From NCBI GenBank assembly GCA_050949225.1, contig JBMNFI010000002.1:125003-189002 (forward strand): a stretch of 64,000 nt of DNA, in the 5' to 3' direction. The DNA comes from Bacillota bacterium (GTDB taxonomy: Bacteria; Bacillota; Dehalobacteriia; UBA4068). Shown one piece after another: positions 49,921 through 58,723 of this stretch. The translations under genes and the position numbers were made by a program. A model generated the notes under the pieces. It ran no database searches, had not been told where the DNA came from, and worked only from the letters and a program-made list of their open reading frames with translations. Position 1 is the stretch's first letter. Every line of letters begins with the position of its first letter.

Positions 49921-50127
49921 GTGATTGATCCGGCAAAAATAGAGATTGGTCAAGTGATAAAATTAAAAAAGGCCCACCCTTGCGGCGGTTTTTTATGGCA
50001 AGTCGTTGATCTGGGTATGGATTGTCGGTTAAAATGCCAAACTTGTGGACATGTAGTGCTTTTAAGCCGTCATGATTTAACTAGACGGGTTGTGGCTGTT
50101 TTACCAAAAGACTTGCCTAAAAAATAA
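49921..50127 (+). CDS. DUF951 family protein
   Basis: LKK.HPCG...W....G.D..LKC..CGH.V.L.R. Confidence 0.9.
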   Translation: MIDPAKIEIGQVIKLKKAHPCGGFLWQVVDLGMDCRLKCQTCGHVVLLSRHDLTRRVVAVLPKDLPKK

Positions 50128-50171
50128 AATTGTGATACTATGTATTAGTTGCATCAACTTTTAATGGTGCA

Positions 50172-50216
50172 TCCCTGCTCCGCTAAGCGGAGCCGTTAGT
50201 CCACAGGGAGGAGGTG
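50172..50216 (+). ncRNA. S6:S18 ribosomal protein leader (autoregulatory RNA)
   Basis: TCCCTG-CTCCGCTAAGCGGAG-CCG...CACAGGGAGGAGG hairpin with CCG bulge next to the rpsF RBS; promoter TTGCCT-N17-TACTAT at 50113-50141. Confidence 0.7.
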
Positions 50217-50222
50217 TTTGGT

Positions 50223-50510
50223 TTGCGTAAATATGAAGTGCTTTACATTATGAAGCCTGATCTCTTAGAGGAGAAATATCAGGAGAATATTGAAAAGTAT
50301 AATGCGTTGATCCAAGCCAATGGCGGTGAAATTCTCAATACTGATATTTGGGGAAAACGTCGTCTGGCATATGAGATCGATAAAATACGCGAAGGATATT
50401 ATGTTCTTTTACAAATCCAGTGTGATACTGAACTAACTAAAGAATTAGAACGTCATTTTAGAATATCCGAAGATGTTATTCGCTATTTAGTAACCAGAAT
50501 TGAAGAGTAG
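50223..50510 (+). CDS. rpsF: 30S ribosomal protein S6
   Basis: RKYE, WGKRRLAYEI, EGYY, VIRYL; TTG start. Confidence 0.96.
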   Translation: MRKYEVLYIMKPDLLEEKYQENIEKYNALIQANGGEILNTDIWGKRRLAYEIDKIREGYYVLLQIQCDTELTKELERHFRISEDVIRYLVTRIEE

Positions 50511-50545
50511 TAATCTGTCCTGTAAAGTATTTGAGGAGGGACAAA

Positions 50546-50983
50546 ATGCTTAATAGAATAGTTTTAATCGGCCGTTTAACTAGGGATCCGGAATTACGTT
50601 ACACCCAAAATGGAGTAGCTGTGGCCAGTTTTACACTAGCTGTGGATCGTTCGTTTAAAAGTGCTGATGGACAAAAAGAAACCGACTTTATCAATATTGT
50701 TGCCTGGCGCGGTTTAGGCGAAAATTGCTCTAATTATCTGAGTAAAGGTAAATTAGCTGCTGTTGATGGTCGTTTGCAAATTAGAAGTTATGAAGGTAAA
50801 GATGGCGTGAAACGTATAGCGGCCGAAGTTGTGGCTGATGATGTACGTTTTTTATCACCGAGAGATGGTTCGGCGGCAGCAAAGCCTGCGGCCAATGATC
50901 ATAAAGGCTATGTAAATGACAGCGATCAAACGGATGATTTTGATCCTGAAATGCCGGTCGGTGATGGCGATTTACCTTTTTAA
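50546..50983 (+). CDS. ssb: Single-stranded DNA-binding protein
   Basis: LN...LIGRLTRDPELRYT, C-terminal DLPF. Confidence 0.97.
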   Translation: MLNRIVLIGRLTRDPELRYTQNGVAVASFTLAVDRSFKSADGQKETDFINIVAWRGLGENCSNYLSKGKLAAVDGRLQIRSYEGKDGVKRIAAEVVADDVRFLSPRDGSAAAKPAANDHKGYVNDSDQTDDFDPEMPVGDGDLPF

Positions 50984-51012
50984 AAATCTTGAATAAATAA
51001 GGAGGATCCCCC

Positions 51013-51264
51013 ATGGCTGATCATGAAAGAGGCGAACGTGGCATGCGTAACCGTCGCGGACGGAGACGTGTTTGTAGCTTTTGCGTAGATAAAGTTACAG
51101 AAATAGATTATAAAGATACCGCTAAATTACGTAAATATATTACTGAAAGAGGTAAAATTCTACCTCGTCGTATTTCCGGTAATTGCGCAAAACATCAAAG
51201 ATGTTTGACGACAGCAATCAAAAAGGCTCGAATTGCCGCTTTATTACCTTATACAACCGAATAG
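51013..51264 (+). CDS. rpsR: 30S ribosomal protein S18 (Zn-binding form)
   Basis: [26 protein letters not shown]. Confidence 0.97.
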
Positions 51265-51603
51265 TTATCTGATGAATATAGTTATTAAAAGCAGTTGGAT
51301 CATATCGTCCGACTGTTTTTAACTTTATTATCGGCTAAAAATACCAGTAGGTTTGGTGATAAGGGATCAGTGGGTTAGAATCCTTATTGCCTAGATCACT
51401 GTGCTGAAAGAGGCATTATTTAAAGTAAAGTTGTTTACCCCTAGGCGGTCATTGAATGTGTTGTGTTGGTTAAGTTAGTTTAAGAAGGTGTTTTAGATAA
51501 TATTCCGTCATATTTGTAGGTATTGAGGCAGGAATAGGTATTGAAAGAGCAGAAGATATCTATTTAGCCATATTTTAAAAAATTTGGGATAAGCAGGTTG
51601 TCT

Positions 51604-52608
51604 ATGACAGATTTCGATCAGGAACAATTTAATAAGACGGACCTTCAACAAAAGCCGCATCCGGCACGGATTGCTATGATGGTTGCTTTGGCAGGAATTT
51701 GCGGTTTAACTAGTTTTTTACCGATTATTGGTTGGGTAGCTTCCCTTATTTATGCCATTCCGTTGGCTATTGTAACCTATCGTTATGGTTTGCGTTGGGG
51801 GATTATCGCTCTTTTAGTAGTGACGGTTTTGTTATCCTTGTTTTCAAACCCCCTTTCGGCGGGTTTATTATCTCTTCAAAATGGTGTGATGGGGCTATTT
51901 TTTGGACAAAGTTTCAGACTAAAAATGGGTGCCTTACGTATCCTCATTCGAGGTATTGTGCTGGCGGTGGCTCTATCTTTTGCCACTTTACTGATTTCCG
52001 CCTTAATGGCGGGCTTTACGCCGCTTTTGATGTATGAGACTTATGTCACGGCGATTGAACAAATGTTGGATACTCTTTTCACTGAAAAGACTTATCAGGG
52101 GATGCCTGCCGCTGAGTATAAGGCTGCTTTTTTAGAATTATTTAGTCGTATTTTGCCCAGTCTTTTGGTTATCTACGCTATGCTGATAGCTGCGTTACAG
52201 TATCTGTTTATAGTCTTAATCATGCGCCGCTTGGGGCATCAGGTTCCTAAATTGCCGGCTTTTGCAAACTGGCATCTTAATTGGCAGTTAGTATGGGGTT
52301 TTATTATAGCGGTGATCCTCAATGCTGTAGGGAATCTAAATGAATGGTCGCTGCTTTCTGTGATTACTGCCAACATTATGTATGTATATTACCCCTTGTT
52401 GTTTATTTGCGGATTGGCTTTCTTTTATTGGTTGTCCAAGCAGCTTAAATCTTTAGCATTGATGGTAATTATTGTGATCGCGGCAATTATGTTTTTCAAT
52501 GTTTTTGTTTACGTGTTATTGATAGTTGCGATTGTGGATCCCATTTTTAATTTACGGGAGAAATTTTATAAATTATTTAACAGAGAAAAAGATGGAGGCG
52601 AAAGATAA
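51604..52608 (+). CDS. YybS/DUF2232 family membrane protein
   Basis: Multi-TM, P......RYG.R.G, LP.F..W; conserved position before rplI. Confidence 0.8.
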   Translation: MTDFDQEQFNKTDLQQKPHPARIAMMVALAGICGLTSFLPIIGWVASLIYAIPLAIVTYRYGLRWGIIALLVVTVLLSLFSNPLSAGLLSLQNGVMGLFFGQSFRLKMGALRILIRGIVLAVALSFATLLISALMAGFTPLLMYETYVTAIEQMLDTLFTEKTYQGMPAAEYKAAFLELFSRILPSLLVIYAMLIAALQYLFIVLIMRRLGHQVPKLPAFANWHLNWQLVWGFIIAVILNAVGNLNEWSLLSVITANIMYVYYPLLFICGLAFFYWLSKQLKSLALMVIIVIAAIMFFNVFVYVLLIVAIVDPIFNLREKFYKLFNREKDGGER

Positions 52609-53057
52609 TGAAAGTAATTTTATTAGAGGATATTAAATCTTTAGGTAAAAGAGGGGACGTTAAGGTGGTTTCTGATGGCTATGCCAGAAATTTTTTACTC
52701 CCTAAAAAATTAGTTGTGGAGGCCGATAAATCCACTATGAATATGTTGGAGCACGAAAAAGAAGTGCAGGCTAAAAAAGAGGCTGAGATATTGGCCAAGG
52801 CAAAGGACGTGGCAAACAAGCTTAAAGAGCAGGGTTTTTCTATTAAGGCTAAATGTGGTGAGGGCGGGCGTTTATTTGGTTCCATTACCAATGCCGACGT
52901 TGCTGAAGAATTAGCCAAAAGTGGAATCGAAGTTGATAAAAGAAAGATTGAGATCAGCGAGCCTATTAAGAGCCTGGGTGATTATCAGGTTGTTTTACGT
53001 CTGCATCCTAAAGTGCAAAGTAAGATTATGATTAAGATTGAAGCTGTTGAAAATTAA
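52608..53057 (+). CDS. rplI: 50S ribosomal protein L9
   Basis: MKVILL.D...LGK.G, GYARNFL.P, GRLFGSIT. Confidence 0.97.
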   Translation: MKVILLEDIKSLGKRGDVKVVSDGYARNFLLPKKLVVEADKSTMNMLEHEKEVQAKKEAEILAKAKDVANKLKEQGFSIKAKCGEGGRLFGSITNADVAEELAKSGIEVDKRKIEISEPIKSLGDYQVVLRLHPKVQSKIMIKIEAVEN

Positions 53058-53074
53058 CGGCGGGAGAAAGGATT

Positions 53075-54430
53075 ATGGCAAAACAAGTGTTGCGCGAATT
53101 ACCTCATAATGTTGAGGCGGAGCAGGCCCTTTTAGGAGCCTGTCTGATTGATAAGGAAGCTATCAATAACGCTATGGAATATGTTCGCAGTGATGATTTT
53201 TATCGTGTGGGGCATAGGTCTATTTTTACTTGTTTACAGAAATTGGCTTTGGCGGGTGAACCCTGCGATTTAGTTACGGTGGCCGAAGAGCTTGATAAAC
53301 TGGGTCAGCTGGAGCAGGCCGGTGGTCTGGAATATTTGGTTTCTTTGGCGGATACTGTTCCTGCTGTTGCTTCAGCAGGCTACTATGCCCAGATTGTAGC
53401 GCAAAAAGCTGTGATTAGGGCTTTGATTGCTGCTGCTGCCAAAATTCAGGAGCAAGGATATACTCATGGTTATGAAGCGCAGGAATTGCTGGAAATGGCC
53501 GAAAAATCGATTATGGAGATTGCCGAGAACCGTAATCAGGGCAGCTTCTACCATATTAGTGATATTTCCGGTGAAGTGATGGAGCACATTGCCAGCATAA
53601 AGCAGACAGATGGAGTTATCGGTGTTCCGACCTTTACTGATTTGGATAAAATATTATCCGGATTACAGAAGAGTGACCTGATCATTTTGGCGGCTCGTCC
53701 GGGCATGGGAAAAACATCGATGGCTTTAAATATCGCCCAGCAAGCGGCCGTTACGCATGGGCGCCGGGTGGCGATTTTTAGTTTGGAGATGGCCAGAGAA
53801 CAGTTAGTGCAAAGAATGTTATGTTCCTTGGCCGGAGTTGATTTGGGTAAAGTACGCGCCGGAGCAGCTGCTGTTGATGAGCTAAATCGTCTCTCGGAAA
53901 GTTTGGGACCTTTATCACAATCCGAATTGTATATTGATGATACGGCGGGTATTACGGTGACAGAGATGCGTTCCCGTTGTCGCAAACTTAAACTGGAGAA
54001 AAAGGGTTTGGATCTGATTGTTGTTGACTACTTGCAACTGATGCAGGGGTCAAGCAGAAGAGCCGAAAACAGGCAACAGGAAATTGCCGATATTTCCCGT
54101 TCATTAAAGGCCTTGGCTAAAGAATTGGATGTGCCAATTTTAGCCTTGTCCCAGCTTTCAAGGATGGCGGAACGAGGGAATGAGCCTCCTAACTTAAGCC
54201 ATTTGCGCGAATCGGGGGCTTTGGAGCAGGATGCCGATATTGTGATTTTTATTCACCGCCGGGTCGATGATGAAGCAGCAGAAGCCGATGGTCTGGTTGA
54301 TATTATTGTGGCCAAGCATCGGAATGGTCCAGTAGGCACTGTTAAAATGGTCTTTGTCTCCAAAATAACGGCTTTTAAAAATTATGCTAAAGAATGGATC
54401 GGAGAGCCTCCCCCGGAAATTAGTGATTAA
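53075..54430 (+). CDS. dnaB: Replicative DNA helicase
   Basis: PHN.EAEQA.LG, AARPGMGKT, FSLEM, DYLQL, LRESGALEQDAD, KHRNGP.G; no intein. Confidence 0.97.
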   Translation: MAKQVLRELPHNVEAEQALLGACLIDKEAINNAMEYVRSDDFYRVGHRSIFTCLQKLALAGEPCDLVTVAEELDKLGQLEQAGGLEYLVSLADTVPAVASAGYYAQIVAQKAVIRALIAAAAKIQEQGYTHGYEAQELLEMAEKSIMEIAENRNQGSFYHISDISGEVMEHIASIKQTDGVIGVPTFTDLDKILSGLQKSDLIILAARPGMGKTSMALNIAQQAAVTHGRRVAIFSLEMAREQLVQRMLCSLAGVDLGKVRAGAAAVDELNRLSESLGPLSQSELYIDDTAGITVTEMRSRCRKLKLEKKGLDLIVVDYLQLMQGSSRRAENRQQEIADISRSLKALAKELDVPILALSQLSRMAERGNEPPNLSHLRESGALEQDADIVIFIHRRVDDEAAEADGLVDIIVAKHRNGPVGTVKMVFVSKITAFKNYAKEWIGEPPPEISD

Positions 54431-54431
54431 G

Positions 54432-54521
54432 AGACCTTTCCCCCAAGTGGAGGGTTTTCCTACGGTGAGGGGTTGAATCATGATACAGTCAAAGACCTTT
54501 CCCCCAAGTGGAGGGTTTTCC
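54432..54521 (+). CRISPR. Orphan CRISPR-like mini-array: 2 identical 29-bp repeats, one 32-bp spacer
   Basis: AGACCTTTCCCCCAAGTGGAGGGTTTTCC at 54432-54460 and 54493-54521; 61-bp period; partly palindromic; no cas genes in window. The repeat is certain, the CRISPR origin is inferred. Confidence 0.55.
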
Positions 54522-54630
54522 GGAAAGCCAGATAAATAAATTAAGCGGCTTAGAGGGCTTATCTTCTACACATAGCAGGCGATAAGCCCTCTGGCTTTGC
54601 CCGATTTTCGCATATGCTTGGCTTTGATCA

Positions 54631-54670
54631 TAAAAAAACTGCACCCTTTTAAAAGGGTGCAGTTTTTTTA
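54631..54670. terminator. Bidirectional terminator (dnaB operon / ilvC)
   Basis: 40-bp perfect palindrome TAAAAAAACTGCACCCTTTT-AAAAGGGTGCAGTTTTTTTA. Confidence 0.85.
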
Positions 54671-54677
54671 TCAGGAT

Positions 54678-55697
54678 TTATTTGCCTACTTCAAAGGTTT
54701 TATCATCCTTTTTAAGCCAGGTCATCATGGAACGTAATTTTTTGCCGACTTGTTCAATCTGATGTTCCTCACCTTGTTTTTCCAGTGCCTTAAAGACCGG
54801 GCGTCCGGCTTGATTTTCCAGGAGCCATTCACGGGCGAAAACGCCATCTTGAATTTCCGTTAGAACCTGACGCATTTCTTCTTTAGTCTCTTCTGTGATA
54901 ATTCTTGGACCAGTGACTAAATCACCCCACTCTGCGGTGTCACTGATGGAATAACGCATCATGCTGATGCCTGCTTCATACATAAGGTCAACGATCAATT
55001 TTGTTTCGTGCAAACATTCAAAATAAGCGACCTCCGGCTGATAACCGGCTTCGACCAATGTTTCAAAGCCCGCAGTAATTAGGTGGCTTAGACCACCGCA
55101 CAGCACTACCTGTTCGCCGAAAAGATCCGTTTCAGTTTCTTCTTTAAAAGTAGTTTCGATTACACCGGCACGTGTGGTGCCGATACCTTTGGCATAGGCC
55201 ATTGCCATATCATGAGCATTGCCGGTGGCATCTTGATAAATCGCGATCAAGGCAGGAGTACCTGCACCTTCTGTATAGGTTCTTCTGACTAAGTGTCCGG
55301 GACTTTTAGGTGCAATCATTACCACATCAATATCCTGTGGTGGCATGATTTGGTTGAAATGGATGTTGAAACCGTGAGCGAAACCCAGGACTTTACCGGG
55401 TTTAAGATTGGGCAGGATTTCTTCGCGATAGATTTTGGCGGCTGCCTCATCAGGAACCAGCATTTGAATATAATCGGCGGCGGCCGCTGCTTCGGCAACG
55501 GACATCACTGTCATTCCATCGGCCACGGCTCTTTTGTAACCACCGCCACCTGTTCTTTGTCCTACAACTACATCAAGACCACTGTCACGCAGATTCAGAG
55601 CATGGGCATGACCTTGACTGCCATAGCCTATGATAGCGATTTTCTTATCCTGTAATAAAGAAAGATTCGCATCATTATCATAATAAATTTTTACCAT
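54678..55697 (-). CDS. ilvC: Ketol-acid reductoisomerase
   Basis: [46 protein letters not shown]. Confidence 0.97.
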
Positions 55698-55891
55698 CTT
55701 TAATACCCTCCAGTTTTATTTATTAAATAGTGACAATATTTTATTATAGTAAAATTATGTTATTCCTCTATTTTAGCATGGTTAGCTTGGTTTTGACAAG
55801 TATTTTCTTATTAAGACCATGAGTTTATCTATATTTAAGATAATATTTGTCCACCTTTTAGCATATCTATGATTATATAATTTACTTAAAG

Positions 55892-57364
55892 GTGGATCAT
55901 GATGTGCTTTTAGGAATGGATGAGGTTATTACTTTTATCAGCGATAAGATTGTTTGGAGTCCCCTTTTAGTTATTTTTTGTTTAGCCAGTGGGCTGTTTT
56001 TTTCTATTGCTACAAGATTTTTACAGCTTAGCCAGCTTGTAAATATGATCAAACTATTATTTGATCGTAAAAAAAAAGGAACGGGGATTTCATCTTTTCA
56101 GTCATTTACCATGAGTCTTGCCGGACGAATTGGGATTGGTAATATCTCGGGGACAGCTACTGCTGTTTTTTTTGGTGGCCCGGGAGCGGTTTTTTGGATG
56201 TGGATGATTGCCTTTTTGGGAGCCGCTACTTCATTTATAGAATGCACATTAGCTCAGGTATGGAAGGAGGAAGTTGATGGTCAGTATCGAGGTGGACCGG
56301 CCTATTATATTTCTAAAGGGTTGGGGTGGCGACGTTATGCGACCTTTTTTGCTATTACTTGTGTACTGGCTTGCGGTTTATTGTTGCCGGGAGTACAATC
56401 CGGTACGGTGATTACAGCCATCAATGATGTCAGCGGGGTTAATAAATCGATTTTGGGTTTGATGATCACCATCTTTTTGGGGATTATTATGATCGGCGGG
56501 ATTAAGCGTATTGCCAAGGTGGCAGAGATTCTTGTTCCCTTTATGGCAGTGGGTTATCTATTAGTGCTCTTGCTGGTTCTGATCAAGGAGGCGGTGTATA
56601 TTCCGGAGATGTTTGCGATGATCTTTAGCAGTGCTTTGGGGGTTGATGCTCTTTTTGGCGGTGTTTTAGGGTCAGCGGTTTCCTGGGGAGTTAAAAGGGG
56701 GGCTTACGCTAACGAGGCGGGAATGGGGAATGCGCCGCATGCAGCGGCAGCGGCAGAGGTTTCACATCCGGCAAAACAAGGGTTGATCCAAGCCTTTTCG
56801 GTTTACGTGGATACTTTTATGGTTTGCACCGGTACGGCTTTTGTGATGCTGTTGACCAAATGCTACAATGTGGTAGACGAGCGCACAGGTGCAATGATCG
56901 TTGAATATGTGCCGCATTTGGAAAAGGGAGCGGCTTTTACGCAGGCGGCGGTTGAGCCTTTATTGGCAGGGGGTGCCGGGATTTTTATTGCTGTTGCTTT
57001 AAGTCTTTTTGCTTTTACCTCTTTGCTCTCTTATTATTATCAGGCAGAAACTAATCTTAGTTTTATTTTTAAAGATGATAAAAAGCTAAAACAAGGGATA
57101 ATTTTTTTGCAGATTATTTTTTTGACAACGATTTTCATGTCTTCTTTACGTTCGATGGATACTATTTGGGCAATGGGTGATATTGGGGTGGGGTTGATGG
57201 CTTGGCTGAATATGATTGCCATTTTTAAGCTGCGTAAACAAGCCTTAGCAGTTTGGCACGATTATCGATATCAGCAGCTGGAGGGTGTTGATCCTGTTTT
57301 TATTGCTAAAAAGGTAGGGATTAAAAATGCTGATTTGTGGAATGAAAAAAATAACCTCAAATAG
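55892..57364 (+). CDS. Alanine/glycine:cation symporter (AlsT/AGCS family)
   Basis: G.GNI.G.A.A, GGPGAVFWMW, RGGPAYY, GGIKRIA, NEAGMG; exact start uncertain. Confidence 0.92.
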   Translation: MDHDVLLGMDEVITFISDKIVWSPLLVIFCLASGLFFSIATRFLQLSQLVNMIKLLFDRKKKGTGISSFQSFTMSLAGRIGIGNISGTATAVFFGGPGAVFWMWMIAFLGAATSFIECTLAQVWKEEVDGQYRGGPAYYISKGLGWRRYATFFAITCVLACGLLLPGVQSGTVITAINDVSGVNKSILGLMITIFLGIIMIGGIKRIAKVAEILVPFMAVGYLLVLLLVLIKEAVYIPEMFAMIFSSALGVDALFGGVLGSAVSWGVKRGAYANEAGMGNAPHAAAAAEVSHPAKQGLIQAFSVYVDTFMVCTGTAFVMLLTKCYNVVDERTGAMIVEYVPHLEKGAAFTQAAVEPLLAGGAGIFIAVALSLFAFTSLLSYYYQAETNLSFIFKDDKKLKQGIIFLQIIFLTTIFMSSLRSMDTIWAMGDIGVGLMAWLNMIAIFKLRKQALAVWHDYRYQQLEGVDPVFIAKKVGIKNADLWNEKNNLK

Positions 57365-57496
57365 CTTATTATAAGAATGTACAAAGATAGATTTTAATAG
57401 TATAATAGATAAAATAAAGGAAAAAACAGGTAATATGTAAAAAAGGGGGGCATGCAAAAAAACAGCAATGATTAATACTTAAAGGGGGTTAGGATT

Positions 57497-58723
57497 ATGG
57501 TTTTGTTGCAAGGTTTAAAAAAAGCGGGATTTCTACTAATAATTTTATTGGCTGTTTGTTTGTGGGGAGCCTCTTCTTCAACAGCTTATGCAAATGATGA
57601 TGTTGCAGAAACTGAGAATATGATCGTTGCAGATGAAGAGCAAGGTGGGCTAATCCCCGATGAAGAGCAAGACGAGGTGATTCCTGAAGAAAATCAGGAT
57701 ACGTTGGCCACTGATCAACAGAATGGGAAAACAATCAATAGTCAGGTATCCTCTGCAGAGATAGTGAATAGAACAGCCTTTAACGAGTCGTTTGATAAAA
57801 AAAAGGCTTATGTGAAGTTTACTTGCAATAATAGAATCATAGAAAGAACAATGAACTATCATAGTTCAATGTCGACTTGGATTCCTGTCGCAGAATTTGT
57901 TTCACTGCTCGGCGGTAATGCAAAATGGATGAGCGATCCCGGTGTAATTTTCTTTTCTGTAGGCAATCGCACATTTGCATATTGTGCTAAGGTTAATTAT
58001 CTTTACATAGTGCAGCGGGATGCAAAAGGCTATTTCTGGCAAAAGGTATATTATACACAGCCCATCAAAAAAATTAATGATGTGAATTATTTAAACAGCA
58101 AGATTCTTAAACATCTGGGGATGTCATATAGCTGGCGTGATAGCCAACATAAGCTTGATATTACACTCGATCCTGCGATGCATGGTACAGGATATTTTGC
58201 TCCTACACAAACTAAAGCTTGGGAATTGGTGGGCAGTGATTTAAAAAAGAATATTCCTAAAGCGCCTACCACTGCCCTTTTGGGCTCTTACACTACCTAT
58301 TTTGATGCCGGATTAATTAACCGCACGACTAATATCCGTTTGGCAGCACAGGCTATCAACAATAAAGTAGTAAAGCCGGGTGCAACTTTTTCTTTTAACA
58401 GCACTGTTGGTCCGCGCACTCCGGCCAAAGGATACAAAAAGGCCATTATCTTTCAAAATGGTAAACAGGTGCAAGGCTATGGTGGTGGAGTTTGTCAAGT
58501 ATCGACAACGCTTTTTAATGCTGCAAGATCCGCAAAGTTAACTATTGTGGAAAGGCATTCACACAGTCTGCCCGTTAGTTATGCAACACCCGGTAATGAT
58601 GCGTCTGTATATTACGGCGTTACTGATTTTAGATTTAGAAATAATACGAAGAATGATATTTTGATTAAAACTATTGTAGGGAAAAATTATATAACTATAC
58701 AAATATATAGACGAATTGTATGA
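57497..58723 (+). CDS. Secreted VanW-domain protein
   Basis: Signal peptide, acidic linker, stalk-like domain, R..NI.LAA, FSFN..VGPR, GGGVCQVSTT, ERH.HS, DFRFRNN. Confidence 0.85.
   Translation: MVLLQGLKKAGFLLIILLAVCLWGASSSTAYANDDVAETENMIVADEEQGGLIPDEEQDEVIPEENQDTLATDQQNGKTINSQVSSAEIVNRTAFNESFDKKKAYVKFTCNNRIIERTMNYHSSMSTWIPVAEFVSLLGGNAKWMSDPGVIFFSVGNRTFAYCAKVNYLYIVQRDAKGYFWQKVYYTQPIKKINDVNYLNSKILKHLGMSYSWRDSQHKLDITLDPAMHGTGYFAPTQTKAWELVGSDLKKNIPKAPTTALLGSYTTYFDAGLINRTTNIRLAAQAINNKVVKPGATFSFNSTVGPRTPAKGYKKAIIFQNGKQVQGYGGGVCQVSTTLFNAARSAKLTIVERHSHSLPVSYATPGNDASVYYGVTDFRFRNNTKNDILIKTIVGKNYITIQIYRRIV

Follow-up and report, generated by a model that had tools for sequence, protein, structure and literature searches.

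The studied locus lies at the end of a gene series comprising rpsR, a gene for a DUF2232 membrane protein, rplI and dnaB, and consists of two identical 29-nt direct repeats (hereafter the 29-mers) separated by a 32-nt segment (the insert). The window, that is, the whole stretch of 64,000 nt analysed here, corresponds to G000:C2:125003-189002, and the unit starts at G000:C2:179434; the genome (G000) comprises 1,550,943 bases in 2 contigs, with 41-42% G+C and completeness of 98.72%. The dnaB stop codon TAA occupies positions 54428-54430, and the unit begins 1 nt beyond it, in the dnaB 3' UTR, so the preliminary description of two identical 29-bp repeats around a 32-bp spacer, 1 nt past the dnaB stop, agrees with our coordinates exactly. 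Features of the region, along with the CRISPR arrays found elsewhere in the genome, are listed in Table 1.

Table 1. Features of the dnaB-ilvC region (window positions) and CRISPR repeats elsewhere in the genome (positions prefixed with C2).
Feature	Position	Strand	Evidence and context
dnaB, replicative helicase, 451 aa	53075..54430	+	ORF; Pfam DnaB_C 2.2e-96, DnaB 2.5e-32
29-mer copy 1, duplicated target or pseudo-repeat	54432..54460	+	unique in genome except copy 2
32-nt insert ("spacer")	54461..54492	+	segment between 29-mers
29-mer copy 2	54493..54521	+	identical to copy 1
16-bp near-palindrome, centre exactly at the 29-mer 3' boundary (54521/54522)	54514..54529		inverted repeat, 12-nt arms, 92%
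Hairpin, 12-bp stem, 17-nt loop, dnaB 3' UTR, downstream of the unit	54552..54592	+	inverted repeat; seen in fold
Perfect palindrome, A/T runs flanking, likely bidirectional terminator of dnaB and ilvC	54630..54671		inverted repeat, 25-nt arms; 19-pair hairpin in fold
ilvC, ketol-acid reductoisomerase, convergent with dnaB	54678..55697	-	ORF; Pfam KARI_N 3.4e-76, KARI_C 9e-67
Type I-C array, 8 repeats of 33 nt, periods 66-68	C2:213526-214027		whole-genome repeat scan; directly behind full I-C operon
Two further I-C repeats, one spacer	C2:222874-222963		whole-genome repeat scan
Orphan type I-E array, nine 28-nt repeats	C2:283928-284445		whole-genome repeat scan

The repeat search of the window yields the 29-mer pair on the plus strand with 29/29 identical positions and start-to-start spacing of 61 nt. 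The copies are sharply bounded, the neighbouring bases being different on either side (G and A before the copies, T and G after them). With up to three mismatches allowed, the window contains exactly two matches to the 29-mer, and none of 100 dinucleotide shuffles gives any. The unit has the A-B-A structure and amounts to 1.48 periods. It is not a simple tandem duplication, which would produce two or more complete periods, and its insert is new sequence. Nor is the unit an assembly quirk of G000, since a contig from the public sequencing run X8 spans positions 54451-54659 with zero differences from the window.

The preliminary description also placed the unit upstream of the operon terminator, and this position is retained: the perfect palindrome between dnaB and ilvC is likely to be a terminator shared by these two genes, despite being missing from the output of the simple terminator scan.

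Several further details of the unit were considered. Read-through of the dnaB stop would open 33 further codons, which we treat as chance, and a 19-codon ORF on the plus strand (54480-54539) begins within the insert, has GAGGGG 7 nt upstream and crosses copy 2, probably also by chance. Both were rejected as real coding sequence, being missing or altered in the empty allele described below, and no relative has a similar DnaB tail. A G-rich part of the insert is approximately 8/10 like the 3' half of the 29-mer, and this similarity was judged by a hand estimate to be fortuitous.

Distribution of the unit and its alleles

No third copy of the 29-mer is found in the whole genome, on either strand, with up to nine ungapped mismatches. 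The 29-mer thus is not a genome-wide dispersed repeat. Eight short-range repeats (at least 25/28 matches, period 40-100) are present in the whole genome outside CRISPR arrays. The periods of the other seven (42, 48, 57, 60, 78, 81 and 81) are all divisible by 3, as expected for repeats within proteins, and the unit is the sole one with a period that is not. The only other repeat with a period close to 61 is a perfect 30-nt direct repeat with period 60 at G000:C2:517263-517355, presumably an intra-protein one.

The sequences composing the unit are equally rare elsewhere. Searches of genome_contigs, metagenome_contigs and viral_contigs return the 24-nt core of the 29-mer from no further record, and the 29-mer is absent from 60 relatives at up to three mismatches. 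The insert, considered as a spacer that might derive from the host genome, phages or plasmids, has no match above chance: self-matches elsewhere in the genome do not exceed 12 nt, which is the chance level, and blastn against phages and plasmids yields chance-level matches with E of 0.9 or worse. Moreover, it has no exact match in viral_contigs (IMG/VR) or metagenome_contigs (JGI metagenomes) and is found, with up to three mismatches, in 0/72 other genomes of the class. As no protospacer was found in these sets (own genome, the 72 genomes, phages, plasmids, IMG/VR and JGI metagenomes), a foreign origin of the insert is unsupported.

A similar unit is not observed behind dnaB in the relatives either. 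In 26 family loci downstream of dnaB nothing is similar to the intergenic region studied here and no comparable repeat is present. The nearest relatives, with DnaB identity of 73-74%, have an unrelated region downstream of dnaB, and none of the relatives searched could serve as an outgroup carrying the site of the unit. Synteny with the closest relatives (L007, L008) ends right after dnaB (54431-54677), as ilvC is convergent here and a co-directional ORF, resembling a helix-turn-helix regulator by eye, follows dnaB there. The C-terminal tails of DnaB in the family relatives (L007-L032) are proline-rich and highly variable in length, many of them ending with PPF; in three relatives (L010, L015, L016) there is one in-frame TAA within the DnaB match.

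The stretch is present in 22 public runs, all of them DNA metagenomes of bioreactors, manure, digesters and landfill, and contigs from four of these runs (X8, X9, X10 and X12) were compared with the window. Run X9, which comes from another study and another habitat, contains one 974-nt contig (depth 4.6) covering positions 53900-54431 and then 54493-54659; it joins 54431 to 54493, so that exactly 61 nt are skipped, with 29 nt fitting either side. The X9 allele, represented by one contig in one run, hence has a single 29-mer and lacks the insert, and no contig in X9 covers the bin corresponding to the insert (54455-54491). The contig belongs to a separate strain, as it differs from the window at positions 54331 and 54569. 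Since the word of the Logan assembler is 31 nt and the 29-nt repeat is shorter, collapse of the two copies is not expected as an artefact; the 31-mer spanning the joint (G + 29-mer + G) also has no possible source in the filled allele.

The filled form is observed in run X8, and no contig of X10 or X12 reaches the unit. There is, therefore, a filled/empty polymorphism at this site, with the empty allele coming from one low-depth contig. As the sister strain has neither the insert nor one of the repeats, the unit is dispensable.

CRISPR systems of the genome and similarity to type I-E repeats

The genome has one cas operon, of type I-C, with the order Cas3 helicase part, Cas5, Csd1, Cas7, Cas4, Cas1, Cas2, where cas3 appears as two adjacent ORFs. 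The operon starts near C2:205750, and the distance from the unit to the nearest cas gene is approximately 26 kb. The sole Cas1 match in the genome is the I-C one (C2:212076-212948), beyond the end of the window at C2:189002, in agreement with the earlier observation that the window contains no cas gene. In the region G000:C2:213526-222963, the I-C array is followed by minus-strand phage-like genes encoding capsid GP7-like (weak match), scaffold and Mu F-like proteins. The two additional I-C repeats are located approximately 8.8 kb beyond the array, and the phage-like DNA may either split one array or carry its own mini-array.

The type I-E array is an orphan: it is flanked by chromate transporter genes and a fragmented hsdR, and no cas gene is adjacent to it. 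Six of its eight spacers are 33 nt long, one is 35 nt and one 32 nt; the neighbouring spacers 4 and 5 are identical. In the same region (G000:C2:283612-284445) there is a tRNA gene approximately 240 nt upstream of the array, and the type I restriction R subunit downstream of it is split into three ORFs.

Models for Cas6e (PF08798, TIGR01907), Cas7e (PF09344) and Cse1 (PF09481) have zero matches in G000. As a control for the Cas6e model, TIGR01907 detects the gene in the family member G018, the built-in control of the search having matched only Thermus. Similarly, the best E-value in tblastn of the G018 I-E proteins Cas7e, Cas5e, Cas6e, Cas1 and Cas2 against G000 is 0.019. In G018 the genes for these five proteins adjoin 37 related repeats, and another relative, G020, has 43 related I-E repeats. 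Type I-E systems circulate in the family, and G000 retains the orphan array alone. The I-E Cas2 of G018 (L161:3067-3633) bears a C-terminal DnaQ-like exonuclease (RNase_T) domain.

The geometry of the unit is that of type I-E. Its period of 61 (29 + 32) equals the period of the genome's own I-E array (28 + 33), as the preliminary description had supposed when it listed the 61-bp periodicity among type I-E traits, whereas the I-C periods are 66-68. At the sequence level, 21/6000 random genomic 29-mers align with the genome's own I-E repeat, on the same strand, as well as the 29-mer does; for the G018 I-E repeat this number is 4/6000, and for the G020 repeat it is 426/6000, which corresponds to chance. 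The likeness is confined to the plus strand and is weak, with the global alignment score from 4 to 9. In a fixed register, the 29-mer and the I-E repeat agree at 7/9 positions over their final 9 nt, a level reached by 0.1% of genomic 9-mers, and at 1/9 positions over their first 9 nt, where the 29-mer is out of register.

Hence, of the earlier claim of an I-E-like repeat sequence, a weak same-strand likeness to the genome's own and G018 repeats stands, but it does not extend to G020, nor to the 5' end. Judging from these alignments, the likeness is modest and in part post hoc. In their right half, some Bacillota I-E repeats carry AAGTGG..GGTGATCC. The alignment score of the 29-mer with the I-C repeat is at the chance level, indicating that the two are unrelated. 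Thus, comparison with a resident I-E cas locus reduces to comparison with an orphan I-E array whose repeat is weakly similar, the sole cas operon being of type I-C with an unrelated repeat.

The stem noted in both copies of the 29-mer is not exceptional. The minimum free energy of the 29-mer is -7.8 kcal/mol (z -0.16), and 71/200 shuffles fold equally well, compared to -13.1 kcal/mol (z -2.03) and 9/200 shuffles for the I-E repeat of the genome. In an Rfam search of positions 50000-58000 (E up to 1) no family spans the unit, and Rfam also misses the true I-E array of the genome, so that this comparison is uninformative; the only matches near the unit are CRISPR-DR54 on the opposite strand (E 0.57) and SscA (E 1.4). 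A loose degenerate I-E-type pattern matches at least 120 stretches in genome_contigs, and 80/80 of those listed are single matches rather than arrays. Comparison by eye of the 70-nt stretches preceding the unit, the genome's I-E array and the G018 array shows no convincing common motif. Copy 1 is directly preceded by the end of the dnaB reading frame, and an AT-rich non-coding leader is absent, so that the unit is indeed leaderless, as first described.

Origin of the unit

We favour, with moderate confidence, an origin by off-target integration of a spacer: a type I-E Cas1-Cas2, since lost, would have left the unit behind as a scar, that is, as a neo-CRISPR locus, and the unit probably has no function now. 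In an ancestor strain, a type I-E Cas1-Cas2 integrase would have made staggered cuts approximately 28-29 bp apart in a non-CRISPR stretch right behind dnaB, whose loose likeness to an I-E repeat is greatest at the 3' end. The integrase would then have ligated a prespacer of 32-33 nt, and gap repair would have doubled the 29 bp. The I-E cas genes would have been lost later, or may never have been chromosomal, leaving the orphan I-E array. At present, the unit would most likely be transcribed with dnaB and left unprocessed, lengthening the 3' UTR by 61 nt with neutral effect.

The exact 29-bp duplication around an unrelated 32-nt insert, with the period of 61 shared with the genome's own I-E array and differing from the I-C periods of 66-68, points to such an integrase as the maker, and so does the fact that among the short-range repeats outside CRISPR arrays this is the only period not a multiple of 3. 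The resemblance of the 29-mer to the I-E repeats of its own genome and of G018, on the same strand, and the circulation of I-E systems in the family (G018, G020) are consistent with it. There is also a precedent in E. coli, reported by Nivala et al. (2018) according to papers citing that work.

The empty site with a single 29-mer in X9 is in line with an insertion, although recombination between the two 29-mers would also be able to yield the empty allele by deletion, and none of the relatives searched carries the site as an outgroup, which counts against the scar. The match of 7/9 at the 3' end and 1/9 at the 5' end of the 29-mer, together with the palindrome centred at the 3' boundary, suggests that the integrase would recognise one repeat-like end and then measure approximately 28-29 bp to the second cut. 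I-E Cas1-Cas2 prefers sites beside palindromes, and this would suit the palindrome at the 3' junction. The duplication of 29 nt, set against the local I-E repeat of 28 nt, fits if the boundary base matches by chance (approximately 1 in 4) or if the ruler is loose, and not otherwise. Since G000 lacks an I-E Cas1-Cas2, such an enzyme can only be postulated for its lineage; the fruitless protospacer search and the single low-depth contig behind the empty allele also weigh against the scar.

This absence of an integrase of the right type, the empty protospacer search and the modest likeness to I-E repeats, lacking for one of the three family repeats (G020), would all be explained if CRISPR were not involved at all. 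The unit could have arisen by template switching or another insertion or deletion event, or it could be a duplicated cis element of the dnaB 3' UTR, e.g., a weak terminator-like hairpin, with the I-E-like geometry being a coincidence. The simple scan indeed calls copy 1 terminator-like (6 pairs, 3 of them G-C, and a TTTTCC tail), but such a match is at the chance level (1 vs. the shuffle mean of 0.7), and the fold of the 29-mer is ordinary as well (z -0.16). Moreover, the unit falls short of the two complete periods that a tandem duplication gives as a minimum, and the insert copies nothing in the genome; the coincidence would have to cover the period, equal to that of the local I-E array, and the duplication length, within 1 nt of its repeat, in a genome where the periods of the other short-range repeats are divisible by 3. 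To our knowledge, no transposon class makes a 29-bp target duplication, which also counts against a non-CRISPR origin. We therefore consider it unlikely.

The same geometry and the same-strand likeness to the family I-E repeats would be expected if an ordinary I-E array had once been present, or had landed, behind dnaB, with two repeats and one spacer surviving to date, and the last spacer having been removed from the sister strain when the repeats recombined. Such loss would give exactly the X9 allele, and the genome already has one orphan I-E array without cas genes. On the other hand, the copies do not differ at any position, yet both show only weak alignment to the I-E repeats of the family and no longer form the stem (z -0.16 vs. 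-2.03), and independent decay would have made the copies diverge. The 5' end out of register with the I-E repeats (1/9), the dnaB coding sequence in place of a leader, the absence of any degenerate repeat elsewhere in the genome (up to nine mismatches), and the absence of the 24-nt core from all other records of the three contig databases and of the 29-mer from the 60 relatives (up to three mismatches) make a remnant of this kind quite improbable.

The preliminary description had inferred a function: a Cas6-type nuclease supplied in trans would release a crRNA-like or regulatory RNA (of the CreA/CreR kind or a decoy) from the dnaB message, or else the unit would serve as a cleavage signal acting on dnaB mRNA. 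The unit does precede the terminator within the region transcribed with dnaB and has the I-E-like geometry, the genome keeps an I-E array, and, given its completeness of 98.72%, an I-E system could conceivably reside on a mobile replicon or one missing from the assembly. Still, the genome has no Cas6e, Cas7e or Cse1, though the Cas6e model works in the family (G018), the repeat of the resident I-C system, whose cas3 is seen as two ORFs, is unrelated to the 29-mer, and the stem is no better than chance (z -0.16). Nothing in the genome matches the insert even as a partial target (best 12 nt), and the unit is absent from the sister strain X9 and from all relatives searched. Neither processing by Cas6 in trans nor a cleavage signal is thus supported, and we hold a functional RNA of either kind to be very unlikely.

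Comparison with known systems and implications

Off-target integration of spacers by the I-E Cas1-Cas2 of E. coli, which can spawn new arrays, was reported by Nivala, Shipman and Church (2018; Nat Microbiol 3:310; PMC5832444). It was demonstrated with over-produced E. coli Cas1-Cas2, and according to a preprint citing that work the natural evidence was circumstantial only and concerned two other species. Off-target sites of Pyrococcus Cas1-Cas2 in vitro are reported to share features of the repeat.

The unit has much in common with the neo-CRISPR loci of E. coli, as these are described by citing papers: a spacer-sized insert between exact duplicates of repeat-sized non-CRISPR DNA, with I-E dimensions, a site far from any cas gene or leader, and a filled/empty polymorphism. 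Unlike them, it represents a natural event in an uncultured bacterium of bioreactor, manure and digester metagenomes, the matching integrase is gone from the genome, and there is a single insert instead of a growing array. A scar of the neo-CRISPR type is what the unit is best likened to and most likely is.

With canonical I-E arrays, such as the one at C2:283928-284445 or the cas-linked one of G018, the unit shares the period of 61, a repeat of 28-29 nt, a spacer of 32-33 nt, and the TTCCCC block and GGGT..TCC 3' end on the same strand as in the 29-mer. It differs in that its repeat is weakly similar to theirs, has lost the stem-loop and is found in no other record searched, and in having two repeats and no leader.

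CreTA-type crRNA-like RNAs, solitary repeat units and mini-arrays of phages, and RNA anti-CRISPRs are found in or beside cas operons or mobile elements. They keep a repeat recognised by the resident effector or nuclease, and CreTA has a partly matching target. The unit resembles them as a very short array-like element located away from the normal array, with a repeat unlike those of resident arrays, but it lacks a matching cas gene, a recognisable structure of the repeat, a target and any mobile element around it.

One could further suppose that the unit captures, in a natural population, the seeding of a CRISPR locus outside any array, in the transcript of an essential gene, and that it is possibly still in use: an I-E system of a mobile element or of co-resident strains could make a guide from the dnaB 3' UTR or lengthen the unit into a new array. 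We regard this as highly improbable; were it true, the birth of an array would be tied to constitutive transcription from a housekeeping operon.

If the unit is an integration scar, as we favour, it adds a filled/empty pair from the wild, at a defined site and with I-E dimensions, in a genome from which the I-E cas genes are gone. It thereby supports the idea that CRISPR integrases scar genomes and can seed new arrays, and indicates that integration scars can outlive the integrase. Accordingly, two-repeat "mini-arrays" flagged by CRISPR finders near housekeeping genes need not be regulatory RNAs.
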